Shown here one piece after another: positions 6,447 to 40,944 of a stretch of 43,164 bases of DNA. The first letter of the stretch is position 1, and each line of letters opens with the position of its first letter. The position numbers were made by a program, and so were the translations under genes. The DNA lies in IMG/VR virus record IMGVR_UViG_3300015245_000019. One strand, given 5' to 3'. A model generated the notes under the pieces. The model worked only from the letters and a program-made list of their open reading frames with translations. It was not told where the DNA came from and did not search any database. Origin of the DNA: a virus.

Positions 6447-7492
6447 TGGCCCTCCAGATGCAGCCGACCCATCAGACCTACACGGCGGATCCTGTCGCTG
6501 CGGTGAAGGAGAGCTTTACTCTGTCCGGCTCGGGAGGGGGAGACGCGGGGCCTGGCGGAAGAGCGCCAACGCCGAAGGCTCAACCTGCTGTGGCATTGCC
6601 GCCTCCGCTCTCCACAGCGACGATCGAGTCGCTCTATCAGCCACTCCGGCACGACATCGAGACGTTGCCGCCGCCTGCGGCACGACCAGTGCCGCCGCCG
6701 CCTCCTGCGCTGAACTCCTTCCTTTCGCTCTTGGGGGCGAACTTGGGGGCCTCTCTTCTCCGGGACCCCGGAGCTGCGGACAAGATCTTCGGCTACATGC
6801 AGGAAAAGGAACAGCAGAGACAGGCGATCGAAGACCAGAACTACGCGCAGAATCTTGCCTTTAACGAGAACAAGAAGGCGCAGCTGGTGGCGATCCGCGG
6901 GAAGGCCCTTGAGACGGCACTTCAGGTGGCGATCCAGTCGAACGACGCGGAGCGGGCTGCGAAGATCGCGGAGAACCTCCACAGGCTGCAGGCCGAGACC
7001 CAGGCTCAGACCGTGATTCCGGCGATGTCGAGCCTCCAGATCGAAAAGGCTAAAGAGATCGGTCGGCAACAAAGACTTACGCTGGCGGATCAGATCAAGA
7101 TGAAGCTGGAGGCAACGACTGCCTCCGGCAAACTGCAGCCGATCACGGGGAAAGACTTCCTCAAATCGATCGACGACATTAACAAGAATAAGGAACTCAC
7201 GACCCACGAAAACGGTCTCCTTGGCGGGCTCCTGCAAGGCATCTTTGGCGGAGATAAGAAGGTCTCGAAGAAAGACATGCTGAAGGCGTCTTTTGTTACG
7301 GGGATCATGGCCGGGGATCCGGGCGTGAAGGCCGACGCAAAGCGCCGGCTCTTGATGACGGTCTACTCGGACCTCGGCTGGCTCGGGAAGAAGGACGTGT
7401 CGAAAATTCTTACCCCGCAGGAAGAGGCCCAGCTCTCCAACAAGCTGGCGGAATACGGGGTTACGTTCGACATGCTGGATAACATCAAGTGA
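6446..7492 (+). CDS. Internal virion protein candidate (Pro-rich N-terminus, long coiled coil)
   Basis: 348 aa with start/stop coupling on both sides. Heptad-like Q/A/E/K-rich middle. Role is inferred from position only. Confidence 0.5.
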   Translation: MALQMQPTHQTYTADPVAAVKESFTLSGSGGGDAGPGGRAPTPKAQPAVALPPPLSTATIESLYQPLRHDIETLPPPAARPVPPPPPALNSFLSLLGANLGASLLRDPGAADKIFGYMQEKEQQRQAIEDQNYAQNLAFNENKKAQLVAIRGKALETALQVAIQSNDAERAAKIAENLHRLQAETQAQTVIPAMSSLQIEKAKEIGRQQRLTLADQIKMKLEATTASGKLQPITGKDFLKSIDDINKNKELTTHENGLLGGLLQGIFGGDKKVSKKDMLKASFVTGIMAGDPGVKADAKRRLLMTVYSDLGWLGKKDVSKILTPQEEAQLSNKLAEYGVTFDMLDNIK

Positions 7493-10410
7493 GAAGTATG
7501 GCCTCCATGCTGGGGACGGCGGCGTCAGAAGCGCCGCCGGTAACTGCGCCGCTAGGCGCAGGCGCAGCTCCGGCGGATAGTACCGGGGTTGCACTTGCGC
7601 CGCCGCCGGCAGCGCCGGTCGGTCGTTCTATGGCCGGGATGCTCGGTGGGGCGCCAGCGGCTGCTCCAGCCCCCCCCGAGCCGGTCCCGGGGACTCCAGG
7701 AATCACGAACGGCATCTCCCTTGGGTCAATCCTCGGGGACATGGCCGAAGGGGCTGTAGCGCCCTTTACGGGGGCCGGACACGCGATCGCTGGGCTCCTT
7801 GCGGATCCCATGTTCCGGGTGTTGCCGTACGAGGACGAGGCGAAGCATCTTGCCGAGGCGGAACGCCTCGGCTGGAAGGGTGCGGCGTTCTGGGGGTCGA
7901 TGCTGGCCGGCGGGCCGATGACAAAGCTGCCCATTGCATTGGTTTGGAGGTTGGCCGCTTCCGGGGCGGCTGGCGGCGCCGTGTACTCGGCGCTGAACAA
8001 TGCGCCGTCACTGCAGCATGGGCACGAAGATCCGAGGACGTATGCTGGGGAAATCGCTACTACGGCAACGTTTGGGGCTCTTACCGGTGGGGCTCTGGCG
8101 ATGGTGCCGCCGGTGGCAAGAACGGCCGGTTTTGCTGCCGCGTTGCCCTTCAAAGGGATGAATCGGCTGATCGATCTGGTGCCGGCTGGGCGGCAGGTCA
8201 GAGCAAAGACGGCCGAGTTTATAAGTGGTGCCTTTTCCAAGGCTTGGGATCCAGTGATGACCAGCGGGGAAGTGATTCTGCAGAAGGCTGGTCTGGGAGA
8301 TCTGGCGAACGGTTTCAAGGCGGCGAGGAAGGTTGCCGCTCTGAAGGCCGGAGAGTCAGTTGCCGGCTTCTACAAGAACATCGAGGGCCTTTCTCCAGAC
8401 GAAATCAAACGAGTCGGTTGGTTCATTGAGAAGTTTGACTTTAGCGACCCCGAACTATTCGGTGTGGCGCACGAGTACACGACGAACGCCTCCGATGCCC
8501 GGCTCTTCGGAGTAGCGCAGCGGGAAGCGACCCGGATGCAGGAACTTGGCAAAATGATGGAAAAGACCGGGATGCAGGTTTACGACCCGACGGACGAGGC
8601 TTTCCATCGGTTCGCGTTGCGGAAGAACTACATCCCGCACCGGTTCGTGAACCCGGACGCAATGAGACCAGGTGGAGAAGCCTACGATGTAAACATCGCC
8701 AAGGTGATGAAAGTAAAGAATATGGTCAGGCCGGACGCCGAGGTCTGGATGGACCAGTTCGCCAACCGGATCGAGAACTGGAACAACGGAGTCGTCGAGG
8801 GACGGTTCCCGGTGGGGACCGCAGGGCATTACCTGATTGGACGTGCCCTTAACCTCGATGGTTTTGAGACGCAGCTCGATCGAATCCTTCCCCAGTATTA
8901 CGAGCACGTCAGCCGCAGGCTGACGAACCACATGTTCTTCGGGCCGCAGCCGCTCCCCGAGGCGGTGGATCAGGCCATCCAAGAAGTTGCGCCGAAAGGC
9001 GTGTTGCCGCCGTCGGCGATGATGATCGGAAGGCCGGATGCCGTGCCTTTGCCGGCTCCAAAAGAGCCGACTCAGTCGATGTGGCAGATCATCTACGCAA
9101 GGAAGAACGCGGCAGAGGCTGCGGCACGGCGCGACCAGGCAATCGAGTTCAAGTACCCGCGGGCTTTTGCGCCACTCCAAGGGATCAAGGATCCGGAACA
9201 GCAGAAGCTGGCCACGACGATCGTGCGAGGCCAGCTCGGAGTTTCGGATCAGCCGCAGTTCGGAAAGAAGGCTCTCGACTGGCTGGCACAGAATGAGGTC
9301 GTTACGAAGTTGGCGTTGGGAGCGATTTCTCAGCCGAGCCAGATGCTCTCTGGCGTCGTGAGGACGGGGTACAGAGGGTCTTTGAAGTGGCTTGTGGCGA
9401 CGGCGGCGCAGGACCCGGAGATACTGGATTTCGTGTTACGGACTGGAGTTACGCTGCGGAGCGTTGTACGGGAGGCACAACAGTCGCTAACTGGACAGAG
9501 GACCGATTTCCTTGACAAGGTACTTTTTACCCAGTTTGACGTAGCGAGCCGTATATACGGCGCTGTGCAGGGTGCTACTCATGCTGAATATATGGGACAC
9601 GAACTCGCCAATACTGTGTCGCAGGCGCAGAGGGTCGCACAGCTGCAGGGTCTCCGGCAGATAGGGGCAAAAGTGCTTGGGATGTCTCCCGTCTTGCGTA
9701 ATAAAGTGGCCCAGCTGGAGTCCCGCTTTATCAAACTGGGGATTGATCCCGTCGAGGTCGTGAAGAACGGCGGCACACTGACCAATGAGCAGTTGCTGGT
9801 AGCGGGCCAGACCGTATCCACAGACGTGAATTTCTGGGGAGACCAGCTCAGCCTCCCACCTTTCTACAAGAGTGCGTATGGCCGGTATCTCACAATGTTC
9901 AAGTCGTTCGGATTCCAACAGACGCGCCTCGTAAAGGACCAGATGATAAAGCCGTTCGCGGCCTGGATCGCTGGAAAGCCAGACGGAGATCCGGGACCGT
10001 TGATGAGGTTCGCTACTTTGATGCCGGGAGGGGGAGAAGCGATCTCGGATTTGAAGGCGATTGCGCGAGCCCGTGAGCGTCCCACGGATCCGGTTCTCCG
10101 GATCTCCGAGAATATCGGGAATGCGGCTGGGTTTGGATTTGCGGCAGACGCTCTTCGGGCCGTTGATTTTGGAGTCGGTGGATCGCTTGGGTTAATGAGC
10201 GGGCCGATCGGGGGGACGGCAGGTAAACTGGGCGCCGCTATCGGCGAGGCCAAGGCGGGGAAGTTCCAGAAGAGTGGGAAGTTTGCAATCGAGTACGGAC
10301 TTCCGGTGCTAGCGAATCAGGTAGCGCCGGGGACGGCGCCGTTTGCCGCGGCAGTTGCGCCGGCCCTTTCTAACGTCATCTTTCCGACCAAGGCGAATCC
10401 CAACAAATGA
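7489..10410 (+). CDS. Large internal virion / DNA-ejection protein candidate (gp16-like position)
   Basis: 973 aa with a GTGA overlap on the upstream stop (an alternative ATG lies at 7498). Ala/Pro/Gly-rich N-terminus. No catalytic motif recognised. Confidence 0.5.
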   Translation: MRSMASMLGTAASEAPPVTAPLGAGAAPADSTGVALAPPPAAPVGRSMAGMLGGAPAAAPAPPEPVPGTPGITNGISLGSILGDMAEGAVAPFTGAGHAIAGLLADPMFRVLPYEDEAKHLAEAERLGWKGAAFWGSMLAGGPMTKLPIALVWRLAASGAAGGAVYSALNNAPSLQHGHEDPRTYAGEIATTATFGALTGGALAMVPPVARTAGFAAALPFKGMNRLIDLVPAGRQVRAKTAEFISGAFSKAWDPVMTSGEVILQKAGLGDLANGFKAARKVAALKAGESVAGFYKNIEGLSPDEIKRVGWFIEKFDFSDPELFGVAHEYTTNASDARLFGVAQREATRMQELGKMMEKTGMQVYDPTDEAFHRFALRKNYIPHRFVNPDAMRPGGEAYDVNIAKVMKVKNMVRPDAEVWMDQFANRIENWNNGVVEGRFPVGTAGHYLIGRALNLDGFETQLDRILPQYYEHVSRRLTNHMFFGPQPLPEAVDQAIQEVAPKGVLPPSAMMIGRPDAVPLPAPKEPTQSMWQIIYARKNAAEAAARRDQAIEFKYPRAFAPLQGIKDPEQQKLATTIVRGQLGVSDQPQFGKKALDWLAQNEVVTKLALGAISQPSQMLSGVVRTGYRGSLKWLVATAAQDPEILDFVLRTGVTLRSVVREAQQSLTGQRTDFLDKVLFTQFDVASRIYGAVQGATHAEYMGHELANTVSQAQRVAQLQGLRQIGAKVLGMSPVLRNKVAQLESRFIKLGIDPVEVVKNGGTLTNEQLLVAGQTVSTDVNFWGDQLSLPPFYKSAYGRYLTMFKSFGFQQTRLVKDQMIKPFAAWIAGKPDGDPGPLMRFATLMPGGGEAISDLKAIARARERPTDPVLRISENIGNAAGFGFAADALRAVDFGVGGSLGLMSGPIGGTAGKLGAAIGEAKAGKFQKSGKFAIEYGLPVLANQVAPGTAPFAAAVAPALSNVIFPTKANPNK

Positions 10411-10718
10411 CCTTGCCAGACGCGTTGAACGGGAAACGGCTGCCGAACTGGGTTTACTTTGTGGCTCTTGGGATTCTGCTGGGGATACAAGGAGCTACGA
10501 TCGTCTATGGGCAAAACGGCGCCATTGAACGGCTCGCAGAGGAGCAGAGAACCTCGACCGATCGACTGGTGAAGGCCATCAATCGGGTGGCGGAACGGGA
10601 CTCGGTGAACAACTACCAGGTGAGGGACATTGTTGATCGCAGGACGAGAGAGGCAAATCAGGAGTTCAAAGAAGTGGGAAAGTTGATCCGAGGATACGTG
10701 CCGAGAAGCATCGAATGA
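10407..10718 (+). CDS. Single-pass membrane protein with coiled coil (holin or i-spanin-like lysis candidate)
   Basis: 103 aa with an ATGA overlap on the upstream gene. One TM segment (WVYFVALGILLGIQGATIVYG) is followed by a charged helical region. Confidence 0.45.
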   Translation: MTLPDALNGKRLPNWVYFVALGILLGIQGATIVYGQNGAIERLAEEQRTSTDRLVKAINRVAERDSVNNYQVRDIVDRRTREANQEFKEVGKLIRGYVPRSIE

Positions 10719-10740
10719 GGTCCGCACGGCGGACCGGGAG

Positions 10741-11094
10741 GTGATTTTGAAACTCGATCAGATTCTGATCTTCGCATTGACGTGGGGACTAGGGATGGTT
10801 CTGAACAAGTGGCCGGCGTTTAAGAATGAGTACATCCCGCGGGTGCTGTGGGTGATGGGGGTGCTCTTCGAGGCCATCAACAAGGCGCTGGCGTCGTCTG
10901 TTGGACCGGTGCCGCCAGTGCCGGCTGTGCACACGTCGTTTGCTGCGGCGGCAATCGTACCGATTCCGGGAGTCAGTATCGACCCAAGCGTGGTGCTCTA
11001 CGGAACCGCGGTCTGGGTCGGCACTCAGGTCGTTCATCTCGCCTTCAAGGTTCTAAAGGACGTCTTCAAGCTGAAGCTGCCTAGCTGGCTGTAG
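10741..11094 (+). CDS. Multi-pass membrane protein, holin candidate
   Basis: 117 aa with 3-4 hydrophobic segments. The GGGAGG RBS favours the TTG at 10747 as the real start. It is the last gene of the + arm and converges on the endolysin arm. Confidence 0.45.
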   Translation: MILKLDQILIFALTWGLGMVLNKWPAFKNEYIPRVLWVMGVLFEAINKALASSVGPVPPVPAVHTSFAAAAIVPIPGVSIDPSVVLYGTAVWVGTQVVHLAFKVLKDVFKLKLPSWL

Positions 11095-11098
11095 GTCC

Positions 11099-11362
11099 CT
11101 AACGGCGGGAGGGCTTCTTTTCCTCTCGCCGTTTCCGTCTCAAGGGGGCAGATGCTCGGGCAGCAAGAGACCCGCGTTTCGCACGGTCTGTCCGTAGCAT
11201 CTTCGCTTCTTCGATCTCGTCGTTGTGGGCCTCTAAAGAGCCGTTGGCGCAAGCTGCGACGAGCCACCGAGCAATCTGGCGGACTCTGGCTCCGTTCTCC
11301 GATTCGAGCGTGATGTGGATTGTCTCGCCCTTCCCCAGTGTGACCTTTAGTTTCTCATTCAT
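11099..11362 (-). CDS. Hypothetical protein, basic C-terminal tail
   Basis: 87-aa reading MNEKLKVTLGKGETIHITLE...RRKRREEKKPSRR. Its ATG overlaps the end of the endolysin gene by 8 nt. The longer 128-aa version in the ORF track overlaps the endolysin and was trimmed. Confidence 0.45.
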   Translation of the reverse strand: MNEKLKVTLGKGETIHITLESENGARVRQIARWLVAACANGSLEAHNDEIEEAKMLRTDRAKRGSLAARASAPLRRKRREEKKPSRR

Positions 11363-11897
11363 ACGAGCCCAGTCGCCGAATGCCCAAGATGCGAGTGACT
11401 GGGAATGCTTCCACGCTGACGGAATTGTTCTGGTTTCCTCCCACGATGTGGACGTTTGTCCTGTCGTCTCCGGCAAAGAATCCAACGTGTCCAGGGGCCG
11501 AGATTACCTCGGCTCCGGGCTGTGCGCCGTCTCCCCGTTGGAGGATGACCACGTCGTAGCCTGGAATGGCAAGGGCCTTCTCGACTGCTTTTCCCACTTG
11601 GAGCCAGGAACGGGCTGCGAGGGATTTCGATCGAGGGAGACGGAGCATCCACGCGACGAAGTTCACGAAGGCCGAGCACCAAGGGACTTCGTCGTCGTCA
11701 GGCCAGGTGTTGTCGAGACGGAGCATGGCCAAGACGAGCGGGTTCGAGGCTGTCCCTGCAATCTCTTTTGTTCCGATGAAACGGCTGGCTAGGTCAAAGG
11801 CGGTCGTCTCTCTCACTGTTGTGCCCTCCTCTTTCTGAATTCCGCTTTGTAGGCTAGGAGTTTCTCTTTCTTCAGATACCGTCGGCGACTCGGCCAT
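11355..11897 (-). CDS. Endolysin, CHAP / NlpC-P60-like (TIGR02594-type) cell-wall hydrolase
   Basis: Motifs EVPWCSAFVNF (catalytic Cys) and APGHVGFFAG (catalytic His), then VGGNQNNSVS. This pattern is typical of TIGR02594-family phage lysins as I recall them. The start is uncertain because the ORF overlaps the upstream gene. Confidence 0.7.
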   Translation of the reverse strand: MAESPTVSEERETPSLQSGIQKEEGTTVRETTAFDLASRFIGTKEIAGTASNPLVLAMLRLDNTWPDDDEVPWCSAFVNFVAWMLRLPRSKSLAARSWLQVGKAVEKALAIPGYDVVILQRGDGAQPGAEVISAPGHVGFFAGDDRTNVHIVGGNQNNSVSVEAFPVTRILGIRRLGSYE

Positions 11898-12364
11898 TTG
11901 ACTACACCGTGCTTAGGAACCATCCAGCAGTCGCCGCCGGTCGTGCGGATCTTGATACGGCGGTCGAACTTCCAGATGTACTCGATCAGAGAAATGAAAT
12001 GGTCGAAGGTGATCTTTACGCCGTGGGAGTGGTCCCGTTCTCGGTGAAGCTGATGGGCAAGGGCAACGGCCTCCATTGGCTTTTTGCAAGGTGTCACGTC
12101 GCCGGAGAGAAGGCCCTTTGCACGCGCCGTGAAGAAGGCCACGTAGTCGGCCTTTACCTTCTCCCAGTTGATGGCGCGGATACCGCGCTCTGATCTTGTC
12201 CCAGACAGGGGTCGGATGATGCCGAACTTCATCAGGCCGTGGATCACGTAGTGGGTTAGGCAATGAGGAGTTCCTTCCCACTTCGGCAGCGCGCAGCGCG
12301 CCCACGAGCAGTTGTAGGTTTTCCGCTCTTCGTGGATCTCGATTGAGTCGGTGCCGTCTACCAT
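11813..12364 (-). CDS. Hypothetical Cys/His-rich protein
   Basis: 183 aa with an N-terminal C..C...C..H cluster (NCSWARCALPKWEGTPHCLTHY). It overlaps the PolA-like stop by 7 nt. No confident family assignment. Confidence 0.5.
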   Translation of the reverse strand: MVDGTDSIEIHEERKTYNCSWARCALPKWEGTPHCLTHYVIHGLMKFGIIRPLSGTRSERGIRAINWEKVKADYVAFFTARAKGLLSGDVTPCKKPMEAVALAHQLHRERDHSHGVKITFDHFISLIEYIWKFDRRIKIRTTGGDCWMVPKHGVVKWPSRRRYLKKEKLLAYKAEFRKRRAQQ

Positions 12365-14022
12365 ATCGAGCCGACGGTCGGACCTAAGACCACGCGTGTC
12401 TTTAGCCCAGTGCCGGTCTCCATGTGGGCCACGAGAGGCTGCAGCTTTGCGGTTTTTGGCAGCTCGACGATGAATCCGGCTCGGGAGATGGCCAGAAGCC
12501 AGCCGCCCAAGGCGGTGGAGATTGCCTCCATTCCCCCGAGACGGGACCAGATTGCGTCGGTGATGGTGGAGGCAACGAGGAACTGTTCCGGTGCAAGCCG
12601 GTTTGGGCCGGTGATGACGCCGGCTTTGTTCTTGTAGTAGCCGTAGAAGCGTTTCCTTCGGCCGAAGGCGTTGGTGATGAAGCCGTCGGTGACGAGCGGT
12701 TCGAGGCTCGGGATGGATCGGCTCGGCTCTTGGAAGAAGATGTGGGCGAGCTGATTTTCGGTCCTGTGGGGGACGAGGAGAGATGGTATTTCCGAAAGCT
12801 GCGGGTTCATTGCTGCAAGCCGTCCCGTGGGTGGTTCGAGATCGTCAGTCTTCCAGAGATCTGGATCGGGGATGTAGGTGGGGTGGATGCAGTTGTCGGG
12901 GCCGACCGGTTGAAGAGCCGACAAGTGGGAGATGGGGACGCCACCCAAGACGAAACCGGGATGGATGGGGATGCCTCTTTCCGTCATGTCGAGCAGGACG
13001 TGGAGGCCGGGCATCATCATGTCGTGGAAGAGGGAAGACATTCCTTCGGCGGCGATGACGGCGCGCTGTTTTGCGGCGATGGCTCTGGTGATTGCTACGT
13101 CGTAGGCGTTGTAAAGGGCCGGGTTCGTTTCGCTCTTGTGCTTCCAGCGGAACGTGTCGGCGTAGATCGAGGCGACGGATCCAAGGCCCATCGGAGAGTC
13201 TGGAAGGAGGAGTTTTGCCGCGAACATCGTGTCGAAGAGGGCTGTCTCCCGCGGCACTCGGACGCCAGCGCGGCGCAGCCGCGCCAAGTCGAACTGGAGA
13301 TGGTGGCCGATGATGGTGACGTTGGGACGAGCGACAGCGTCGGCTAACCAGCGACGAAGTTCTGCCGACCACGCAACAGTTGTGACCGGACCGGTAGGCC
13401 CAGCAATTCCTACTCGTTCGATGGCTACGGAGTGGCCAATTGTTTCGATGTCGAGAGTTAGCTCGGTGGCGACGGTGGGGAAGGCAGCTGTCATCTCCAC
13501 AATGATCGGCTGCGCTTCCCCTGAGATGATGCGCCGTAGGCGCATCAGATCCGCGATTAGTATTGGTAAGGCTTTGAACTGCCCCCGCTGGACGGATCGA
13601 GGAGGAGATAGACAAGTGATGTAGTCTGCTCGGGGCGGAAGGGGCGGAAGGCCAAGAGTCCGAACACGCCGATACTTTGGATCCCCTCGACGGCGAAGAA
13701 TGCTGCCATCAGGAGCTTTTCGTGTAGTGCGGTAGAAACCGGATTGTTCGGTGACAGTTCGCTGTATAGGTCGGCACTCGTCTGGCCGAAAGAGAAATCC
13801 CCGAAGTGAATCGAAACGCCCGGAAACTCCGGTAAGAGCCCCGAAGGTGACTCCGCCCAGACAAGCGATGACGCGAATGTCACCGTTGATTGCGTGGCAC
13901 TCGTAGTCAGCTGTCGTGGTGACGACGAAAGCCGTCCGGTCGAGGCCCGCCTCCGCGGCAAGTTTCCAGAAATGACGCGCTCCTTGGAAGTCGATCGTCT
14001 CTCCGAGAGGAACGATCAGCAA
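12358..14022 (-). CDS. PolA-like protein: UDG-like N-domain + 3'-5' exonuclease + degenerate polymerase remnant
   Basis: 554 aa, TTG start. The N-terminal ~100 aa show a UDG-superfamily-like pattern (PLGETIDFQG, VIACLGGVTFGAL, SLRGFLF). Exonuclease motifs are present: ExoI LDIETIG, ExoII GHHLQFDLARL, ExoIII YNAYDVAITRAI. The PolA landmarks PPTGRLAAMNPQLSEIP and ITNAFGRRKRF are only about 33 aa apart, so motif A (DYSQIELR) and motif B (R..AK..NFG..YG) are missing. The QVHDE position reads AISRAGF. Confidence 0.6.
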   Translation of the reverse strand: MLIVPLGETIDFQGARHFWKLAAEAGLDRTAFVVTTTADYECHAINGDIRVIACLGGVTFGALTGVSGRFDSLRGFLFRPDECRPIQRTVTEQSGFYRTTRKAPDGSILRRRGDPKYRRVRTLGLPPLPPRADYITCLSPPRSVQRGQFKALPILIADLMRLRRIISGEAQPIIVEMTAAFPTVATELTLDIETIGHSVAIERVGIAGPTGPVTTVAWSAELRRWLADAVARPNVTIIGHHLQFDLARLRRAGVRVPRETALFDTMFAAKLLLPDSPMGLGSVASIYADTFRWKHKSETNPALYNAYDVAITRAIAAKQRAVIAAEGMSSLFHDMMMPGLHVLLDMTERGIPIHPGFVLGGVPISHLSALQPVGPDNCIHPTYIPDPDLWKTDDLEPPTGRLAAMNPQLSEIPSLLVPHRTENQLAHIFFQEPSRSIPSLEPLVTDGFITNAFGRRKRFYGYYKNKAGVITGPNRLAPEQFLVASTITDAIWSRLGGMEAISTALGGWLLAISRAGFIVELPKTAKLQPLVAHMETGTGLKTRVVLGPTVGSIW

Positions 14023-14031
14023 GATAGAGCC

Positions 14032-14061
14032 AATAGGCGCCGCTTCTAAGCGGCGCCTATT
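14032..14061. terminator. Perfect 12-bp hairpin (AATAGGCGCCGC-ttctaa-GCGGCGCCTATT)
   Basis: Read directly. The TAG stop of the 14046..14474 ORF lies in the loop. A T-run follows on the + strand and GGCUCUAUCUUG follows on the - strand. It sits 10 nt upstream of the PolA-like start. Confidence 0.45.
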
Positions 14062-14809: not shown

Positions 14810-15379
14810 TCAAACGGGTTCGAAGATTGTGGTGATCTCGGGGATCCAACGGCGCTTTCCGTCTCGGCCGTCCAGAGGACCGTGCTTCAACTCGAAACGG
14901 ATCGTCTTTCCCACGAGCGGCGAAGCTGCCGTGGCGAAGGCGTCCTCCGGCGGGAAGCAGGTTTTCAGGAGAGCGGAAGTGAAGCCGCCGTCTGGGCCGT
15001 CTGGCTGGATGCCGACGCCGCGAAGGAGCGCCATCAGTCTGTTGATCGACATGTAGCTCATCTTGGCGTAGCCCTCCGGCTGGCCAGTAGCGATTGCAGA
15101 CGGCGCAAGCCGAAGGGTGTTCTTGATGACAAAGCCGATGTTCTCTCCTGAGCCCTCTGCAGAACAGGTCACTTCGTAGACGAACGTCTTTACTATCACG
15201 CCGTTATCGGCGGTGTAAGTGCCGCTGTTGGTGGCCGTTATCGTTCCCGCCTCTTCCCAGAAGTGAACGTCGGGGTTGCGGTTAGAAGGTCGCGCCGTAG
15301 GCGGGACTCGCATCTTATACTCGGAGGCTTTCTCCGCGTCGCGTAAGACATCGCCCGAGATCGAAAAGAAATCATCCAC
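14810..15379 (-). CDS. Putative ssDNA-binding protein (DUF669-like)
   Basis: GTG start with a GGGAGG RBS 6 nt upstream, overlapping the upstream stop. It sits immediately downstream of the Sak4-like ATPase, the usual DUF669 position. Sequence resemblance is weak and judged by eye. Confidence 0.45.
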   Translation of the reverse strand: MDDFFSISGDVLRDAEKASEYKMRVPPTARPSNRNPDVHFWEEAGTITATNSGTYTADNGVIVKTFVYEVTCSAEGSGENIGFVIKNTLRLAPSAIATGQPEGYAKMSYMSINRLMALLRGVGIQPDGPDGGFTSALLKTCFPPEDAFATAASPLVGKTIRFELKHGPLDGRDGKRRWIPEITTIFEPV

Positions 15380-16232
15380 TGACACCCTCCCTGGCTTGCG
15401 CCGGCTGTGCCGGCGCAAAGTGGCGGTCATGTTCCAGCCAGAAGTTGATCGGGTTAGGTTGTAAGTCGCAGACAGGCATTGGGTTGTAGTCGTGCCCGCT
15501 GCGAATGCCAGCTAGCCAGATATTCTGGGTCTCGGTCCAAGCCGTGATCTTGGGCTTCGCGTCCTTGCCGTAGCCCGTGGACTGCCTTGTGAGACGGATA
15601 CAGGTCGGAAAGCGGCCTGCGTAGGAGCCGATTGTGGCAGAGCCGACCGTTAGAGGACCACCCGTGAGGGTCTTTGACCCGGCTTCCTGGGCCTCCTTGT
15701 AGCCTTCGTGGGCCACGACAATGACGTTCAGGGGCTGGAGGAAGAGGAACGTCGTGATTCGGTCTATGGCGTTCTGAGCGGCCATGTAGTCGCCCTGCAT
15801 GGGGATCGACTGGAGGTCTTTCGTCGCCTTGGATCCCATGATGATGTGCTTCGACTCGGAGAAGGAGCCCTGGTCGGCGATGCTGACCAGGATGTCCCAG
15901 CCGGTGGCCGTAATCGTGTCCCAGACGATCGTTTTTACGCCCGCGAAGCGGGCGCGCCAGGTTTCCTGGGCCATCACGAAGGCGTCGGTACGGGGATTGT
16001 AAAGCTCGCCGGCCTTTGGGCGAGAGCCGACTACGTGGAACCGGGGGCGGATCGCGGGGAAGATCGAGTCAAGGCGCTCGGAGGTCGGATCCGCGGCAAC
16101 GTAGACGATCTCCCCCCACCGAGGCGGGAGCGAGGTGGCAAAACGAGTCTTGCCCGTCTTTGGAGCGCCGTAGATTAGGATGCGTTCGAAGCGGTTCTCG
16201 ACTGCGGAGAGATCTGTGACTCCCACTGCCAC
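15372..16232 (-). CDS. AAA_24 / Sak4-like RecA-fold recombination ATPase
   Basis: 286 aa, GTG start with an AAGGA RBS. Walker A ILIYGAPKTGKT, Walker B-like TIVWDTIT and later NVIVVAHE. The layout is typical of phage AAA_24 proteins. Confidence 0.7.
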   Translation of the reverse strand: MAVGVTDLSAVENRFERILIYGAPKTGKTRFATSLPPRWGEIVYVAADPTSERLDSIFPAIRPRFHVVGSRPKAGELYNPRTDAFVMAQETWRARFAGVKTIVWDTITATGWDILVSIADQGSFSESKHIIMGSKATKDLQSIPMQGDYMAAQNAIDRITTFLFLQPLNVIVVAHEGYKEAQEAGSKTLTGGPLTVGSATIGSYAGRFPTCIRLTRQSTGYGKDAKPKITAWTETQNIWLAGIRSGHDYNPMPVCDLQPNPINFWLEHDRHFAPAQPAQAREGVSG

Positions 16233-16336: not shown

Positions 16337-17254
16337 TCACGTTTGCACGCGTAAATAGGCATTTGCCACGCAACGGCGAGCGTCGGCGTCGGAGAGAGAG
16401 GGTGTACTCCTCCTGGCGCCAGAGAGTACGACATGATGTGCATATGACTCATCGATGTTGGACTCTGCCAATGACGCGGCTGTTGCGAACGCAGCTGCAT
16501 GTCGGCCCGGCTCGTGAACTCCATGGCTGAGAAACCTCCTTGCTGTGACGGTGAGACGGCCCCAAATCTTGTCGAGGGTTACGGGATGACCGGACTCTTT
16601 GTCCCTACGAAGAAGGGATCGATGTTCTCGTTCATCTCCAGCTGCTCTCCAAATGGGGTGGTGTTCCCAGTCGGCGAAGCCGACTGGCTCTCCCCACTGG
16701 AGGACTCGGGCAGTCCTTCCTGTCTTTGTGTTTGTTGTGAATGGACAACGGGCGACCCTTGCTGCGTCACTGACGGTTGTATCGAGACGACAACCGAAAG
16801 AATCGCCAAGTTGATCTCTGACGGTAACGAGTAAACGGCGCACGCCGTGTTCAAACGCTCTTGCCACCAGTGGAGCACTATGTGGTTCTGTGTCAAGAAG
16901 AACCCAAGCTTGGACGCCTCTTCCTGTGTCAATGACAGCCGGATAGATTCTCCGTCCCAAAAGACCTTCGGCCAGGTCGATTGCGGCAAGGGCCGCGGCA
17001 ACTGGGGCACATTCCCCATCAACTGGATCCAGGTCGAGAACGATTGCTCCAATTCGGTCAATGTCGGTCCCTTTGATGCGGATTCCACGCCACTGGTTCG
17101 TGTGATTTAACCCGATGTAGGTATTGTAGCCGAGTCGGTCCATGTTCGCAGCGATTCGTTGTAGCCCGGAGGGGCGCTCCACGTGTCCACCAAGTACCTC
17201 GCCCGAAGGGCGACGAGCGAACCAGCGGAGGAATCCGGCCGAAGGCCGGACCAT
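16337..17254 (-). CDS. AEP-superfamily DNA primase-polymerase
   Basis: Trimmed to the ATG at 17254, the first start after the upstream stop at 17274. Motif I AIVLDLDP (DxD), motif II DTGRGVQAWV, motif III RLDTTVSDAARVARCPFTTNTKTG. A C-terminal helical PriCT-like region follows. Confidence 0.7.
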   Translation of the reverse strand: MVRPSAGFLRWFARRPSGEVLGGHVERPSGLQRIAANMDRLGYNTYIGLNHTNQWRGIRIKGTDIDRIGAIVLDLDPVDGECAPVAAALAAIDLAEGLLGRRIYPAVIDTGRGVQAWVLLDTEPHSAPLVARAFEHGVRRLLVTVRDQLGDSFGCRLDTTVSDAARVARCPFTTNTKTGRTARVLQWGEPVGFADWEHHPIWRAAGDEREHRSLLRRDKESGHPVTLDKIWGRLTVTARRFLSHGVHEPGRHAAAFATAASLAESNIDESYAHHVVLSGARRSTPSLSDADARRCVANAYLRVQT

Positions 17255-17273: not shown

Positions 17274-18191
17274 TCATCCGGCGGAGCCGAAGCCTGCGAC
17301 GATCTGCTGCATGTTGTGACGGGTGGCGTAGTGATCGACGACAGTGTGGCCGATGTGCCGGACGAAAGTCTGTACATTCTCCATTTCCTTGCCTCGCAGG
17401 GCGAGAAGATCTTTCATGCCGGGGGACATTGTGGGGCCGGCCTGGAAGAGGCCGACACCCCATGCCCAGGGGAACTCGAAAGTAAGATCTGGATGGGCGG
17501 CGCGAAGCTCCGCCCAGAACTTCCAGACGTGACAGTTGGGGTTGATGAGTAAGTGCGTGTCGTGGAACACAACGCAGCCGCGGGACGAGAGCCGCGGCGC
17601 CCACGTTTCGAAGTCGTGCTTTACTTCTTCGTAGCTGTGGCCGGCGTCGATGTGGAGTAAGTCGATGGAGATGTCGTTGAACTTGGGACGAGCTTCGTCG
17701 AGGGTCGAACGGATCAGCTGCACGCTGTGGTAGTCGTTCTCTCGAAGGTAACGTTGGAGGTCTTCAATCACGGCGTCACCGTAGAAGCCGCTGTTCTCGT
17801 CACCGTGGAAGGTGTCGATGCCATAGATGCGCGTCTTAAGTGCCAGCTCTCGGCAGATCTGGGCGATGGTACAGAGGCTGTCGCCGCGGTAGACGCCAAG
17901 TTCTACCGCGACTGAAGGTCGCACCAGGGCAACGGCGAGAGAGAGACATGGCAAGGATGGGTGGTAATCGTTCACGCCAGTAAGGCGGTCGGGAAGAGAG
18001 AGAATTGTCGGATACTGAACGATGTTAAACACTATTCTCTTCCCCACATCGCCAGCTGGATACAACACACAATAAAGCAAATTAAGGCTGCTCCCATCAA
18101 TAGATACCAGAGTAATTCGACGAACGCTTTTACCATCGCTCGCACAGTCCTGGATGGACTGCCGTTCCCGCGCGAAGCGCGAAGCCCGCAC
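17274..18191 (-). CDS. Class I SAM-dependent methyltransferase (Methyltransf_24-like)
   Basis: Motif I VELGVYRGDS, then IYGIDTF and IDLLHIDAGHSYEEV. The true start is probably internal: the first ~60 nt overlap the upstream gene and 18000-18130 is AT-rich. Confidence 0.65.
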   Translation of the reverse strand: MRASRFARERQSIQDCASDGKSVRRITLVSIDGSSLNLLYCVLYPAGDVGKRIVFNIVQYPTILSLPDRLTGVNDYHPSLPCLSLAVALVRPSVAVELGVYRGDSLCTIAQICRELALKTRIYGIDTFHGDENSGFYGDAVIEDLQRYLRENDYHSVQLIRSTLDEARPKFNDISIDLLHIDAGHSYEEVKHDFETWAPRLSSRGCVVFHDTHLLINPNCHVWKFWAELRAAHPDLTFEFPWAWGVGLFQAGPTMSPGMKDLLALRGKEMENVQTFVRHIGHTVVDHYATRHNMQQIVAGFGSAG

Positions 18192-19083: not shown

Positions 19084-20019
19084 TCATCGGGATTCCTCTT
19101 CCGCAAAATGTGACTTAGCATCAGCTGCTCTTGGGCTTCCATTATCATATCTCTGTTCGGCATTTTGGAAGAATCGATCGTCGCGTAAGTCCACGAGTCC
19201 CCTACGTGCATCCCAATATGGTGAGAGGACGTTGCCGAATCGATTGAGATCTGCCAGCCGGTTCTGGGTAGGTTGACGTCGGCCGTTGGCAATGTCGTCC
19301 ATTCGATCGGCCCAAACTGCGATGTCGAAGAGGGCATTTTTCACTTCCTCCGGACGAATCGGGATCATCTCTTGGATGAAAGCCGTCTCGGGGCGTTCCT
19401 TGATGGCTTTGTGGGACAGCTTTCGTGTCACGTTGAGGATTGTTCCGCCGTATTGACCATCTCCGAGGGCCAATTTCTGCTCGATGAGAAAGCTGTACAC
19501 CAGCTCGTGAAGAGACCGCTCCTGTGAGGCCACATAGACGGCGATCGGTGTTCTGTCACTGATGGTCTTGTATTGGACGTTCCACACTTTGCCGTCCCGC
19601 GTGCGGAGCACGCGGTCAGGCGTGCCGAGAAGTGTGTGGTCGGCCTTGGAGCCGGCCCAGTACGGAAGAGGTGCCTCCAATGGCGTCTCTATGAAGAGCG
19701 TCTCCTGATCGGCAACGAAGTCGCTGTAGTGATCGAAGAGCGAAAGGAGTCTTTCCGCCTGATCGACGAACTGCTGGACTTCTTCTTCGTCGCCGAAGAC
19801 TGCGATTTTGTCGCGCATCTCGGCCATCCTTGGGATGGCAGAAGCAAGGGCCGCGGTTTTACTCCCGGTCTTTGTGGCCTCCGCTAGGAGGCCGTGCCAG
19901 AAGGTGCCGACGTAAAGCTCGGCTGCGGGACGACGCGGGATGCGTCGGACGACGGCGCGCGCCCACCAGTCCCATTCGCAAACCAGGAACGAATTGATGT
20001 CAGATACCGAGAGACGCAT
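19084..20019 (-). CDS. PD-(D/E)XK (RecB/Cas4-like) nuclease
   Basis: ATG at 20019 with a GAGGG RBS. N-terminus MRLSVSDINSFLVCEWDWW. Core GTPDRVLRTRDGKVWNVQYKT matches the D...(D/E/Q)xK layout. No C-terminal Cys cluster. Confidence 0.6.
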   Translation of the reverse strand: MRLSVSDINSFLVCEWDWWARAVVRRIPRRPAAELYVGTFWHGLLAEATKTGSKTAALASAIPRMAEMRDKIAVFGDEEEVQQFVDQAERLLSLFDHYSDFVADQETLFIETPLEAPLPYWAGSKADHTLLGTPDRVLRTRDGKVWNVQYKTISDRTPIAVYVASQERSLHELVYSFLIEQKLALGDGQYGGTILNVTRKLSHKAIKERPETAFIQEMIPIRPEEVKNALFDIAVWADRMDDIANGRRQPTQNRLADLNRFGNVLSPYWDARRGLVDLRDDRFFQNAEQRYDNGSPRAADAKSHFAEEESR

Positions 20020-20303
20020 CCTTGCACCCTCGAAAGACGGTAACGGGACATAGAGCCGTAGTTTTCCATGATGATGATGTTGTTCAGCGTCCGTAAGGCA
20101 GATCCATTGGGGCTTCCAGGAGGCCAATAGAGAGCCAGATAGGCAGCGCTGACGGTCCTACTGTGGAGTGTTCCATCATTGAACATGTGGAAACACGGTG
20201 TGTTATTTGAAGCGAAAGAGTGGCGTTTCCATTCGTGTGCGACGTCCCAGTTCTCTAGAAGGTGAGCACGCAACACCTCAGCTGTCTCTAAGCGGGTCTT
20301 CAT
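19884..20303 (-). CDS. Hypothetical protein; 3' third overlaps the nuclease gene
   Basis: ATG at 20303 with a GGAGAAAGGA RBS. The last ~45 codons overlap the nuclease ORF out of frame and become low-complexity, so the true end is doubtful. Confidence 0.3.
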   Translation of the reverse strand: MKTRLETAEVLRAHLLENWDVAHEWKRHSFASNNTPCFHMFNDGTLHSRTVSAAYLALYWPPGSPNGSALRTLNNIIIMENYGSMSRYRLSRVQGCVSRYLTSIRSWFANGTGGRAPSSDASRVVPQPSFTSAPSGTAS

Positions 20304-24320: not shown

Positions 24321-24766
24321 TCTTTCACCGTATTCTTCCTCCGAACACGGGTGGTCAGATGATAGGCGATACGGGATTTTGTGGGAGTTTCTCCGGATCC
24401 TGGTTTGTATTTTCTGGTCCGGTTCTGGAGTCGGTTCGCCGGAGAGAATGGGACAAGAGTGTAAACACCCGGTGAGAAGTCTTTGTGACGGTCGAATGTC
24501 ACGATCTCACGGGAGATGGAATTACTGGTTTTGTAGCGGATTGCTCGTGTGCCTTTGATGATGTAAGAGGCTGAAAGGCCGATGATTGCGCCGCCTTTGA
24601 ACTGGCGCTTGCAGGCGACGGCAAGGGCGCACTCGGTCTCTTCCATGATGTGACCGGTTATTTGATCGTTTTCTGTAACGGTGATCACCACCGGTTTGTC
24701 AGCATCGACGAGAGTCTTCACCCTCGGGTAGAACTTCTGCACATTCTTCAAAGTGGAAATCTGCAT
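24317..24766 (-). CDS. Hypothetical protein
   Basis: 149-aa ORF. Its ATG shares one base with the helicase stop codon. No motif recognised. Confidence 0.55.
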   Translation of the reverse strand: MQISTLKNVQKFYPRVKTLVDADKPVVITVTENDQITGHIMEETECALAVACKRQFKGGAIIGLSASYIIKGTRAIRYKTSNSISREIVTFDRHKDFSPGVYTLVPFSPANRLQNRTRKYKPGSGETPTKSRIAYHLTTRVRRKNTVKE

Positions 24767-25854
24767 TACGTTGTCTCCTTTGTGGTTATGGTGCTCCAGG
24801 TGCCGTGAGAAACGCGTCGGGCGGAGCCGGATCTTTCGAGAGAAAGAAGAGCGCCACTGATGCGAGAGTATAGCTGAGAGTCAGTGAGATCTTTGAAGGC
24901 CACGTCGGCGCGAAGAGCTTCGCTAATGGTTCTGAGCTGTACTTCTTGCGAAGCCCGAAGGGCTCGCAGGACACTACGGACGATAGAGTTGCCGCCGGAA
25001 TCGGCGTCCAGGTCAAGAGTTGTCGGCGAAGCCGACGTGATTCGGAAGCTGGACGTTGGTAGGTTTCCAGCTGAGCCTCGCGCTTTTGCGAGCGACATCG
25101 AAATGAGCCCTTTCGTCTTGGTCAGGATTAGGTGCTGGTCGATGGATCCTGCGATTACAGATGCGCCGCGAGCACGATAGTTTCCACTTATTTCGTTGAG
25201 TCCGCCTTTCGTGAAGGTGGGTTTTGCTGTGTGATGGGTGAAAAGCACAGTGAGGCCGTGGTGATCGCGGAGGTATTTGAGCAGCGTCATCACGCGATCC
25301 ATTTCTTGGTTGTTGTTCTCGTTGAAGTCGTGGAACGCCTTCAACGTATCGAGCATCACGACGTTGATGTCGTAGAGGTCGATCGCCTGTTCGATACAGC
25401 GAATAAAAGCCACGTTGTTCTGGCCGAAGGCCATGCCGCGATTCAAGATGAAGACGCTGTTGAGTGGTGGTTCCTCGGCGTAGCCGAGGCCGCGGACAAG
25501 GGCGGAATAGCCGCCGATGTAGTCCCACGTCGGAGCGTCTTGGCCGATGAAGAGGGCGCGGTGGTTCTTCGCCGGGATAAGCGCATTGAGGAAAAGGGCG
25601 CCGGTATCGAGGGAAATCATCAGATCGAGTAGGAAGAGGGTCTTTCCGCAGTAGGGTTCGCCGGTGATGGCGATCAGGGACTGGCTGCGGAGCAAGTCGG
25701 CAACGAGCATTGGGGGCGGCGAAGCCGCATGGCCCAAGATCTCGTAGCCGCGGAGTGGGCGATAGATCGTTTCGAAAGGGCCGACAGGTGTGTCATTGTG
25801 ACGCACGTCTTCTGTGGTGTCAACTGTCGTTTCACTGTCCACGAAAGCCTCCAA
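24766..25854 (-). CDS. RepA-like / AAA_25 RecA-fold replicative helicase
   Basis: Walker A ITGEPYCGKTLF, Walker B VVMLDTLKAF, then TVLFTHHTAKP. A GGAGG RBS favours the GTG at 25842 over the TTG at 25854. Confidence 0.7.
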   Translation of the reverse strand: MEAFVDSETTVDTTEDVRHNDTPVGPFETIYRPLRGYEILGHAASPPPMLVADLLRSQSLIAITGEPYCGKTLFLLDLMISLDTGALFLNALIPAKNHRALFIGQDAPTWDYIGGYSALVRGLGYAEEPPLNSVFILNRGMAFGQNNVAFIRCIEQAIDLYDINVVMLDTLKAFHDFNENNNQEMDRVMTLLKYLRDHHGLTVLFTHHTAKPTFTKGGLNEISGNYRARGASVIAGSIDQHLILTKTKGLISMSLAKARGSAGNLPTSSFRITSASPTTLDLDADSGGNSIVRSVLRALRASQEVQLRTISEALRADVAFKDLTDSQLYSRISGALLSLERSGSARRVSHGTWSTITTKETT

Positions 25855-27105: not shown

Positions 27106-28080
27106 CTACTCGTAAAACTGCGCTTCTTCGTTGCTGCTGTCTTTTTCTGCCGCAGGCGGCGGCGGCGGCGGTAGTGCGCCGAGTGGCTGGCCTTTGGATT
27201 CAGGCAACGGCTCCGGGCGGAAGATTTGCTTGCCTTTCTTCCGTACCCAACGGCCACAGACGCCGTTTACGTAACCGATGTTGTTGTCAGCCCATGACTT
27301 GGGTAGTTTGGCGTTTTCCTTTCGCCATGTATCCCAATTGAACCGGCCATAGTCTGTGCTCTTGTAGTTGGGCTGGTAACACAGTCCGATTTCCCGGACT
27401 CGGCCTTGCTGCGGATCCAAACGGCACAGTACTTTGTCGGGTACGGTGTCGGATTTGATGCGATAGTCCATAAGCCAGACGTAATGGGCGGCTCGGTCGA
27501 TGATGCCTTCTGTCGAGGCAAATAGCATGACGCGCGTGCCGTTGGTCAAGTCAACGCGGTAGCTTTCGATCGGGTTTCCGTCTCGAATGAGATAGACCTT
27601 GTTTTCGTGGTAGACGGCGACGGCGGCACTGCCAAAGATGGAGCGTAAGAAGCGCGGCACCTTAAAGATGCCGTTCTTTTCGGCGTAAGCCGAAAATAGT
27701 TCGCTGTCTACGCCGGACGGCCAGAGAAGGCTGTGCGTCTCTGCGACTTTTTCGGGATTTCCGATAACGCCGTTGTGGATTGTGGCGATGCCGGAAGCGG
27801 AGACAAAAGGTTGCGCTTGTTCGTTGCCTTTCTCCCCGCAAGTTGGGGCGCGGGTATGGAGCAAGGCGTAACTTGCGCCGCCTTCGAGAAGCGCGGCGAA
27901 TTCGGGAAGAACGCCGAATTCGTCAGGAGATATGGCGCGTTTGAGTAGTTTGCCGTTCGTGTGAATCCCGGCACTCTGCTTTCCGCGCTCTTGGCCGAAG
28001 AACAAGAGCGCGCGGCATAAGCGCAGCGCCGTCTCGTAGGAAAGCGGTTTACTAGACGCGAAGCCGCTGATGCTGCACAC
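27106..28080 (-). CDS. Class-II (Ntn) glutamine amidotransferase-like protein with C-terminal extension
   Basis: GTG-TGC start gives an N-terminal Cys nucleophile (M)CSISGF. HTRAPTCGEKGNEQAQPF and IHNGVIGN match the purF-type GATase pattern. About 110 extra C-terminal residues end in a poly-Pro tract. An AGGAAGGA RBS is present. Confidence 0.7.
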   Translation of the reverse strand: MCSISGFASSKPLSYETALRLCRALLFFGQERGKQSAGIHTNGKLLKRAISPDEFGVLPEFAALLEGGASYALLHTRAPTCGEKGNEQAQPFVSASGIATIHNGVIGNPEKVAETHSLLWPSGVDSELFSAYAEKNGIFKVPRFLRSIFGSAAVAVYHENKVYLIRDGNPIESYRVDLTNGTRVMLFASTEGIIDRAAHYVWLMDYRIKSDTVPDKVLCRLDPQQGRVREIGLCYQPNYKSTDYGRFNWDTWRKENAKLPKSWADNNIGYVNGVCGRWVRKKGKQIFRPEPLPESKGQPLGALPPPPPPAAEKDSSNEEAQFYE

Positions 28081-29341: not shown

Positions 29342-29615
29342 TGTCTGGCTGTTTTCGGGATATGCGGGATACACGTTCGTCGTCTCCCGAGTCGGGGCCG
29401 AAGGGATGATCTAGCCACAGTTTGAGCGGATACGGTTCTAGCCAACTAGGCCGAATTACTTTTCCTTCACCATCGCTTTGATCGTCGCCACACTCCCAAT
29501 ACGGACCTAGTAAAGACTTCGATAGTTTCCACAGCCCGGAACCGTGCTTTGGTATTGCAGCATGAAACCGAACGCGGGGCGCTAGGACCGACGATCGGCT
29601 GGCGGTCAAGGTCAA
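29334..29615 (-). CDS. Hypothetical protein upstream of the amidoligase
   Basis: 93-aa reading from a TTG that overlaps the upstream stop (TTGA). Its 3' part lies in the low-GC island. The start is uncertain. Confidence 0.4.
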   Translation of the reverse strand: MTLTASRSSVLAPRVRFHAAIPKHGSGLWKLSKSLLGPYWECGDDQSDGEGKVIRPSWLEPYPLKLWLDHPFGPDSGDDERVSRISRKQPDNA

Positions 29616-32517: not shown

Positions 32518-32677
32518 GATCGGGGTTTACGGCTACGACCTGGCACGGGATTACCACGTCATAGTGGCTGGCATGACCGGTCATCTGCTGGAACGCATCG
32601 AAACCGACATCTTCGCCCTCTACTCCAAGGATGGAGTTGATGACGATAAACGCCCCGCCCAGCCCTCCTCTCCCTGA
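32495..32677 (+). CDS. Small protein MDMASLSEIGVYGYDLARDY...
   Basis: 60 aa from the ATG at 32495, which lies inside the previous ORF's motif codons. It overlaps the terL start by 47 nt. Confidence 0.35.
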   Translation: MDMASLSEIGVYGYDLARDYHVIVAGMTGHLLERIETDIFALYSKDGVDDDKRPAQPSSP

Positions 32678-34442: not shown

Positions 34443-34504
34443 CACACGCGAAGTGCGCCGTATCGTTTCCCGTGTGGCCAAAGGCCACACGGGAGGGGCA
34501 GCGG

Positions 34505-40611: not shown

Positions 40612-40944
40612 ATGCCGACTTACAGCCTGAACATGGCCGATGAGAAGTTCATCAACCAAGTCCTTGAGCCGGAGGAATTGACCAGGCGGGTTCCCCGCCT
40701 GGCGACGTTCTTCGAGGGGATCAAAGAACAACGCGGAGCATTGGCCGATCTCGGAACGAAAGGGCCGAAGACAGGTTCTACTGGCTGGTGGAAGAACGGG
40801 ACGGCGCAGTATCTCGGTACTGTGCCGATCTCGGTCAAGATGGCGATTCAAGAGATCGACCCCGAGTTCTGGGAAGATCAGCGGAAAGTGATGCGCTTCT
40901 TCGCCACTCACCCCGAATACGTTGTCACGTCGGTGTCGAAATGA
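40612..40944 (+). CDS. Hypothetical protein
   Basis: 110-aa ORF. Its stop overlaps the glycosyltransferase ATG (ATGA). Confidence 0.55.
   Translation: MPTYSLNMADEKFINQVLEPEELTRRVPRLATFFEGIKEQRGALADLGTKGPKTGSTGWWKNGTAQYLGTVPISVKMAIQEIDPEFWEDQRKVMRFFATHPEYVVTSVSK

Follow-up and report, generated by a model that had tools for sequence, protein, structure and literature searches.

Can a gene that reads as a family A DNA polymerase (PolA), with its proofreading exonuclease in place and no visible polymerase active site, still encode a protein under selection, and if so, for which activity? The question is raised by a PolA-like gene in the IMG/VR virus record IMGVR_UViG_3300015245_000019, a stretch of 43,164 nt that is referred to here as the window. 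An earlier note on this DNA had read the gene as an in-frame relic kept for its exonuclease and UDG-like domains, with DNA synthesis falling to a nearby AEP primase-polymerase or to host enzymes. Our analysis points to a pseudo-polymerase that probably arose from a phage UDG-PolA replicase, its polymerase module pared down to the palm core and its exonuclease kept under selection. The 554-codon open reading frame (ORF) was found at the position that the earlier note had described, on the minus strand and with a TTG start, and every string quoted there was located in the 554-aa (amino acid) protein with verified coordinates (Table 1).

An exhaustive HMMER search with the PolA-like protein returned 598 matches. 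The closest relative is P0001, a protein of 557 aa with 71% identity. It is followed by proteins of 730–820 aa that carry an N-terminal UDG-like domain, a DEDDy 3′-5′ exonuclease and a complete family A polymerase, the group defined as UDG-PolA by Czernecki et al. (2023; PMC10201439). The best full-length match is P0003 (E 1.9e-78), and identity to the full-length UDG-PolAs is ∼30–38%. When the window protein and P0001 were compared with 28 full-length relatives using hhalign, aa 15–555 were aligned with a probability of 100 and an E-value of 1.9e-83. The homology runs along the whole length, including the UDG-like domain and the palm core, and the gene lies at the orthologous genomic position. 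This is far beyond chance and indicates that the window protein, which is about 200 aa shorter than full-length UDG-PolAs, descends from the phage UDG-PolA family.

All five catalytic residues of the DEDDy exonuclease (D191, E193, D245, Y304 and D308) are present in the window protein and invariant across the family in a 32-sequence alignment. They are also kept in P0001 and in three further relatives described below, P0029, P0096 and P0137, so that the proofreading motifs are intact and conserved, as had been proposed from the window alone. The sole Pfam match of the window protein is PF01612, with an E-value of 1.5e-4 and 22.0 bits, slightly below the gathering cut-off of 23.6 bits; P0001 scores 25.9 bits. 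Among the PHROGs, phrog_17 (“DNA polymerase”) was matched over aa 185–354 only, which corresponds to the exonuclease (E 3.5e-17). Automated annotation via phrog_17 would label such genes “DNA polymerase”, which would mislead function prediction.

The polymerase half gives a different picture. Five full-length relatives match PF00476 (DNA_pol_A) with 140–176 bits, whereas no match to this family was found in the window protein, even at E≤10, nor in P0001, P0096 or P0137. Motifs A and C bear the catalytic aspartates of family A polymerases. In hhalign and MAFFT alignments with the relatives, the thumb of ∼100 aa is absent after aa ∼356. Further on, after aa 430, a 16-aa linker stands in for ∼125 aa that comprise the helix of motif A (DYSQIELR) and all of the fingers, motif B (RAKN..YG..YG) included. 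The hhalign alignment places F430 at the position of the catalytic Asp of motif A, and the helix bearing the Glu is deleted; both the Asp and the Glu are present in 28/28 full-length relatives. At motif C, hhalign pairs LLAISRAG with LLttVHDS, such that VHDS has become ISRA, with the HD replaced by SR (VTRV in P0001, TR for HD). In the Q-helix, Ala takes the place of the minor-groove Gln (Q665 in P0003 numbering). That motifs A and B are missing and motif C is altered, as had been noticed earlier, was confirmed with profile methods. The spacing between the two palm landmarks is also strongly shortened, at 35 aa (∼33 aa in the earlier note) compared with about 123 aa in P0003. The deletion of the thumb had been overlooked earlier.

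In an alignment based on a hidden Markov model (HMM) of the 150 best HMMER matches, practically every complete protein has the Asp and Glu of motif A, the Lys of motif B and the HD of motif C. The exceptions are the window protein, P0001, P0096, P0137, P0029 and the P0087/P0102 pair. With neither the motif A Asp, motif B and its O-helix, the motif C HD, the thumb nor a match to PF00476, the window protein cannot plausibly polymerise DNA, as far as can be judged from its sequence.

A predicted structure is in good agreement with this. We built an AlphaFold2 model with the 32-sequence alignment (mean pLDDT 87.7, pTM 0.88), in which the exonuclease domain and the palm core mostly have a pLDDT above 90. 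The palm core consists of a strand (423–430), a hairpin (448–458), a helix (477–504), the motif C hairpin (508–522) and C-terminal elements. At the position of the thumb (aa 351–400) there is a loop with a pLDDT of 50–75, and at that of the fingers (aa 431–440) only a linker with a pLDDT of 69. Foldseek matched the model to large fragments of PolA in the PDB (apicoplast polymerase, M. smegmatis Pol1 and Bst Pol I; E ∼1e-15), and its top matches in BFVD were full-length UDG-PolAs, phage proteins of 820–1040 aa. The query was well covered (TMq 0.64–0.68) and the targets poorly (TMt 0.38–0.45), and in BFVD none of the targets that matched on both TM measures was of similar size. In structure, the window protein is therefore a subset of a UDG-PolA.

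Table 1. Positions of the PolA-like gene, its parts and nearby genes for DNA metabolism in the window.
Feature	Residues (aa)	Position	Strand	Basis
Reduced UDG-PolA homologue, whole gene		12358..14022	-	554 aa + stop; TTG start at 14022
N-terminal UDG-like domain, degenerate in its catalytic motifs	1-170	13513..14022	-	aligns to UDG-like N-terminus of relatives
DEDDy 3′-5′ exonuclease domain	171-355	12958..13512	-	PF01612; phrog_17; lowest dN/dS
ExoI LDIETIG (D191, E193)	190-196	13435..13455	-	D and E invariant in 32-sequence alignment
ExoII GHHLQFDLARL (D245; H241)	239-249	13276..13308	-	verified string; alignment
ExoIII YNAYDVAITRAI (Y304, D308)	304-315	13078..13113	-	verified string; alignment
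Low-confidence linker in place of thumb	356-381	12880..12957	-	gap in MAFFT and hhalign; pLDDT 50-75, no long helices
Retained palm landmark PPTGRLAAMNPQLSEIP (TGR motif)	397-413	12784..12834	-	verified string; hhalign, MAFFT
Remnant of motif A beta-strand, then 16-aa linker	423-430 (strand)	12685..12756	-	hhalign; AlphaFold2
Retained palm hairpin ITNAFGRRKRF	449-459	12646..12678	-	verified string; MAFFT, hhalign
Motif C position LLAISRAGFIVELP, HD to S513-R514	509-522	12457..12498	-	hhalign; AlphaFold2 beta-hairpin 508-522, pLDDT above 90
Sak4-like single-stranded DNA annealing ATPase		15372..16232	-	PF13479, phrog_124; syntenic in every related locus
AEP primase-like gene, PriCT-like C-terminus		16337..17254	-	phrog_2478, E 8e-13
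PD-(D/E)XK exonuclease		19084..20127	-	PF12705, phrog_1218; syntenic in related loci
RepA/DnaB-like helicase (AAA_25)		24766..25854	-	family match

Contrary to what the earlier note had suggested, the UDG-like domain is unlikely to be kept as an enzyme. In the window protein CLSPPRSV (13591-13614) occupies the place of the HPA motif, and the PFxGxxG loop is missing, the sequence there being PLGETIDFQGA. No match to PF03167 (UDG) was found in the window protein, P0003 or P0005, and 3/5 of the full-length relatives tested (P0007, P0009 and P0012) did match it. The family-4 UDG motifs thus read as degenerate both in the window protein and in its nearest full-length relatives. A UDG-like domain that is likewise catalytically degenerate has been described in N4-like UDG-PolA enzymes (PMC10201439). 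What became of the earlier reading is therefore mixed: a selected relic with an intact exonuclease is upheld, and retention for a UDG-like enzyme is not.

The same architecture recurs outside the window. P0001 is encoded on 12 contigs, drawn from at least four SRA runs, with the same architecture end to end and the same start, and the window's own protein is present on 4 contigs. The genome encoding P0001 (L002) is collinear with the window, with 65–90% protein identity. We estimated the ratio of nonsynonymous to synonymous substitution rates (dN/dS) with the Nei-Gojobori method for the pair formed by the window gene and the gene of P0001. The resulting approximate value is 0.19 for the whole gene; by domain it is lowest in the exonuclease (0.10) and higher in the palm relic (0.23) and the UDG-like domain (0.24). 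The values of neighbouring genes span 0.07–0.33, a range that includes the relic gene.

Contigs of the nearest relatives share a gene order of DUF6745, PD-(D/E)XK, a ∼300-aa ORF, methyltransferase, AEP, Sak4, an orf206 homologue, small ORFs, PolA and lysin, with structural genes after the lysin on the other strand. At this locus the PolA is found in several states. It is complete, with all motifs, in L008 (P0003) and L015 (P0008), where an AEP lies at the syntenic position with 32% and 48% identity, respectively. In L013/L014 (P0029, at 9491-11614) the thumb and fingers are kept, motif A reads LDYGDTFTEL and motif B RSKATLEGF, the TGR motif is lost, motif C is absent, the C-terminus is truncated and PF00476 is not matched; the exonuclease motifs are intact. 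L013 and L014 carry one and the same sequence, seen in a JGI and an ENA assembly. For the AEP, tblastn gave no match within the 21.6 kb seen of the 45.6-kb contig L013, and a 106-aa ORF lies at the AEP position. In the window and L002 the PolA is fully pared down and the AEP is present. A further syntenic lineage, L017 (P0087, at 7755-10081) and P0102, has a separate 274-aa UDG gene that matches PF03167, with a 505-aa PolA homologue downstream. In this homologue both the exonuclease motifs (DIEN, HELKY, RPAHD) and the polymerase motifs (Cys/Leu in motif A, Gly in motif B, HN in motif C) are degenerate. Two distant proteins of 550–554 aa, P0096 and P0137, are thumbless and miss the motif C Asp; in a model of P0096 the thumb region is disordered and the O-helix absent, and its locus has a module of PD-(D/E)XK, Sak4, PolA-like gene and lysin.

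A neighbour-joining tree of the exonuclease region, which is crude and possibly subject to long-branch effects, pairs the window protein with P0001 at 100% bootstrap support and joins P0096 to P0137 at 98%, and the window pair adjoins P0008 and P0029. A single clade of the four reduced proteins was recovered in 0/100 bootstraps. As they never group together, we tentatively suggest that the polymerase half was eroded repeatedly and independently in this phage group. L013, which has lost the catalytic residues and still has its thumb and fingers, would fit an order in which catalytic inactivation came before subdomain loss; L013 need not lie on the direct line of descent of the window.

The reduced form is known only from Logan, ENA and JGI contigs found with HMMER, since a search of IMG/VR gave one locus only, an ordinary full-length UDG-PolA, and the GTDB genomes and JGI metagenomes searched gave no further reduced members. 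A PDB sequence search with the PolA-like protein gave nothing useful, and a word-indexed search for homologues yielded nothing beyond the orthologue and a few generic PolAs, also with profile queries. Searching GenBank phages by tblastn with the PolA-like protein, the AEP and the terminase gave remote matches or none. The large terminase (32631-34442, plus strand) is not closely related to any in 50,697 GenBank phage records, the best match covering half of it with 27% identity. This uncultured phage lineage is known only from metagenomes.

Is there another enzyme that could copy the phage DNA? Bases 1-77 of the window are identical to bases 43088-43164, as in a circular or terminally redundant genome of 43,087 bp, and the window is a complete phage genome. 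Querying its six-frame translation with a UDG-PolA HMM and generic Pol I sequences matched only the PolA-like gene, and neither a separate polymerase subunit (split gene) nor a frameshifted continuation was found. No other polymerase was seen in Pfam and PHROG scans of the large ORFs of the window. Those recognised comprise the Sak4-like ATPase, the AEP primase-like protein, a methyltransferase, the PD-(D/E)XK nuclease, the RepA/DnaB-like helicase, a GATase, an amidoligase, the terminase, portal and capsid proteins and a second, small DnaQ-like exonuclease. The AEP is 305 aa long. It has the DLD and the later Asp, a PriCT-like C-terminus (EPGRHxAAF) and no Pfam or PDB sequence match. Its motif II reads GRGxQxW, with a Gln that is invariant in the three homologues aligned (window, L002 at 6635-7558 and L008 at 6583-7575) where AEPs normally have the nucleotide-binding His. 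The homologue in L002 had been left uncalled by the gene caller of the source. With a dN/dS of 0.33, the AEP evolves faster than its neighbours.

Several other explanations of the PolA-like gene have to be weighed. That the gap is an assembly deletion or a chimera has practically no chance of being correct, because the orthologue from other sequencing runs has an identical architecture, the window's own protein recurs on 4 contigs and the protein differs from its relatives by three separate in-frame changes, not by one junction. A misassembly, which the earlier note had left open together with the question of relatives sharing the deletion, is thereby excluded. The gene might instead be a decaying pseudogene that has not yet acquired stops, and its progressive erosion in related phages would fit such a course. 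The 554-codon frame is nevertheless intact in two genomes at a dS of about 1.1, dN/dS is low over the gene and even in the relic, the deletions are clean and in frame, the AlphaFold2 model is compact and confident, and the frames of the distant reduced proteins P0096 and P0137 are intact too; taken with the shared architecture of P0001, this makes a drifting pseudogene very unlikely. Still less credible is that the protein polymerises DNA from a minimal active site of an unusual kind. Such an enzyme could draw on the retained TGR motif, GRRKRF hairpin, motif A strand remnant and adjacent acidic residue; it would have to work with an Arg for the motif C Asp, with no O-helix (R, K, F/Y) for the dNTP, no thumb to hold the duplex, Q665 lost and PF00476 unmatched. 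A non-catalytic role, in which the protein is a replisome or recombination scaffold for the helicase, primase, Sak4 or host factors and exonuclease chemistry is irrelevant, is also improbable, if less so. It is favoured by purifying selection on the catalytically dead palm relic and UDG-like domain and by the L017 lineage (P0087/P0102), which retains the gene with both sets of motifs degenerate. Against it, the exonuclease residues are kept in the window protein, P0001, P0029, P0096 and P0137, and the exonuclease has the lowest dN/dS of the domains.

The relic could also act as a trans-acting proofreader for the AEP as the phage replicase, the two forming a two-part replicase. The AEP lies in the same operon-like block as the relic, no other polymerase was found in the complete genome, and AEPs are not known to proofread, which counts in favour of such a pairing. 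On the other side, the same AEP has an intact PolA beside it in both L008 and L015, and none was seen in the 21.6 kb of L013, a locus with a dead PolA; the AEP is small, with the PriCT-like tail of a typical primase layout; it has Gln for the motif II His in all three aligned homologues; and it evolves faster than its neighbours. We consider a two-part replicase unlikely, and the suggestion that the AEP took over DNA synthesis is not favoured; the AEP appears to be an ancestral neighbour of the PolA and not its replacement. Of the two replicases proposed earlier, the host polymerase is the likelier one, because L008 and L015 have the AEP together with an intact PolA, and the 21.6 kb seen of L013, with its decayed PolA, gave no match to the AEP. 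Slightly less doubtful than the two-part replicase itself, though still improbable, is the broader idea that a clade of ∼43–46 kb phages is abandoning its family A replicase. The polymerase half of UDG-PolA would have been inactivated several times independently and later trimmed, and in the window lineage the freed exonuclease would edit or process 3′ ends in trans for a polymerase without an editor, either the AEP or a recruited host enzyme. If true, no earlier natural case would be known of a family A pseudo-polymerase that is “exonuclease-only”, nor of a two-protein replicase based on one.

Certain observations weigh against the reading of the gene as a pseudo-polymerase with a selected exonuclease, or against parts of it. 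Competence of the exonuclease is inferred from motifs, and in ExoII the window protein has H241 where most relatives have N. The conserved acidic residue after the motif A strand (E432 in the window protein, Asp in P0001) may leave a residual metal site, the alignment being ambiguous as to whether it is a shifted motif A carboxylate. A single sequence pair with dS near saturation (∼1.1–1.4) underlies the dN/dS values, which makes them approximate. The likelier host replicase is deduced from absence; four large ORFs of the structural arm (815, 997, 973 and 348 aa) are without annotation, and an AEP or polymerase could lie elsewhere in L013, of which 21.6 of 45.6 kb were seen.

Taken together, we favour a pseudo-polymerase that most likely works as a stand-alone 3′-5′ exonuclease. 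The polymerase module would have been inactivated and then pared to the palm core, with no thumb, fingers or catalytic residues of motifs A, B and C, leaving the DEDDy exonuclease as the activity presumed to be under selection. The degenerate UDG-like domain and the palm relic would most likely survive as a frame packed around the exonuclease, since the three domains of UDG-PolAs form one body, with the UDG domain between the edges of the exonuclease and polymerase (PMC10201439); perhaps they also provide a residual DNA- or partner-binding surface. The phage DNA would be copied by the host replicase, with the phage's own AEP for priming and RepA-like helicase for unwinding. The exonuclease may trim 3′ ends at forks or in the Sak4 and PD-(D/E)XK recombination pathway; its constant neighbourhood with these two genes suggests a role of this kind in recombination-dependent replication or repair. 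Proofreading in trans is possible.

The borders of the gene show two further features. A hairpin at 14029-14058 (minus strand), AUAGGCGCCGC-UUAG-AAGCGGCGCCUAU, has a 13-bp GC-rich stem (-26.8 kcal/mol, z -4.5) that is conserved in L002. The stop codon of the ORF upstream lies inside the hairpin, which ends 7 nt before the TTG start, at which no obvious Shine-Dalgarno sequence is seen. The hairpin may be a terminator, an attenuator or a translational-coupling element. Downstream, a 183-aa ORF (11813-12364, minus strand) overlaps the stop of the PolA-like gene by 7 nt and is for that reason probably translationally coupled to it. It contains a Cys/His cluster (C..C...HC..H) and matches no family. 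In both L002 and L015 a homologue of this ORF comes after PolA, regardless of whether the polymerase is decayed or intact.

Elsewhere in the window, the DnaQ-like exonuclease (259 aa, 34439-35218, plus strand) lies between the terminase and portal genes and matches phrog_403 (“DNA polymerase exonuclease subunit”), PF13482 (RNase_H_2) and PF10108 (PolB-exo-like). A glutamine amidotransferase (27106-28080, minus strand), an amidoligase with a treble-clef zinc finger (28052-29374, minus strand), a Methyltransf_24 methyltransferase (17274-18191, minus strand) and a glycosyltransferase (40788-42254, plus strand) could form a pathway for DNA or cell-surface modification. Modified bases are known in some UDG-PolA phages (PMC10201439).

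Together with its intact and half-decayed syntenic relatives, the locus forms a natural series for the order of events in polymerase decay. The series bears on the shift of phages from self-encoded to host-dependent replication, on the minimal PolA scaffold that supports an exonuclease and on proofreading supplied in trans.

How does the window protein compare with known systems? Stand-alone DEDDy exonucleases of PF01612, such as RNase D and the WRN exonuclease, have the same fold and DEDDy residues and no attached polymerase. In contrast to the window protein, neither a palm remnant of PolA nor a UDG-like domain is present in them, and they do not derive from a replicase in the recent past. 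Family Y is known to include inactivated polymerases that were retained in other roles. A full-text literature search on inactivated family A polymerases returned only cases from family B such as Pol epsilon. The inactivated family B module of Pol epsilon and similar pseudo-polymerases resemble the window protein in that a polymerase fold stayed under selection after catalytic loss (PMC2669801, PMC5499653). In Pol epsilon, however, exonuclease and polymerase have both lost activity and the module serves a structural role, whereas in the family A window protein the exonuclease looks active. The UDG-PolAs themselves (N4-like cluster 17 and unclassified; PMC10201439) share its domain order, whole-length homology and orthologous position, and differ in having the thumb, the fingers with motif B, the carboxylates of motifs A and C and a match to PF00476. 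Their reclassification includes PolA subfamilies with a dead exonuclease and a split exo/pol pair, and describes no polymerase-dead member (PMC10201439). A family A member with a dead polymerase and its proofreading kept is described neither in this 2023 reclassification nor in a 2024 survey of polymerase swapping in phages. The S-SBP1-like T7-type phages likewise have a PolA-derived 3′-5′ exonuclease that by itself is not a polymerase (PMC10201439), but a separate adjacent pol gene forms one enzyme with it, whereas the window exonuclease has no such partner and is still fused to a dead palm. The divPolA1 and divPolA2 proteins of Caudoviricetes, which the 2024 survey describes, are strongly diverged PolAs as well, with a truncated or missing thumb, and present the mirror image: they keep the catalytic residues of the palm and have the exonuclease inactivated or absent (PMC11348598), while the window protein has kept the exonuclease and carries a dead palm.

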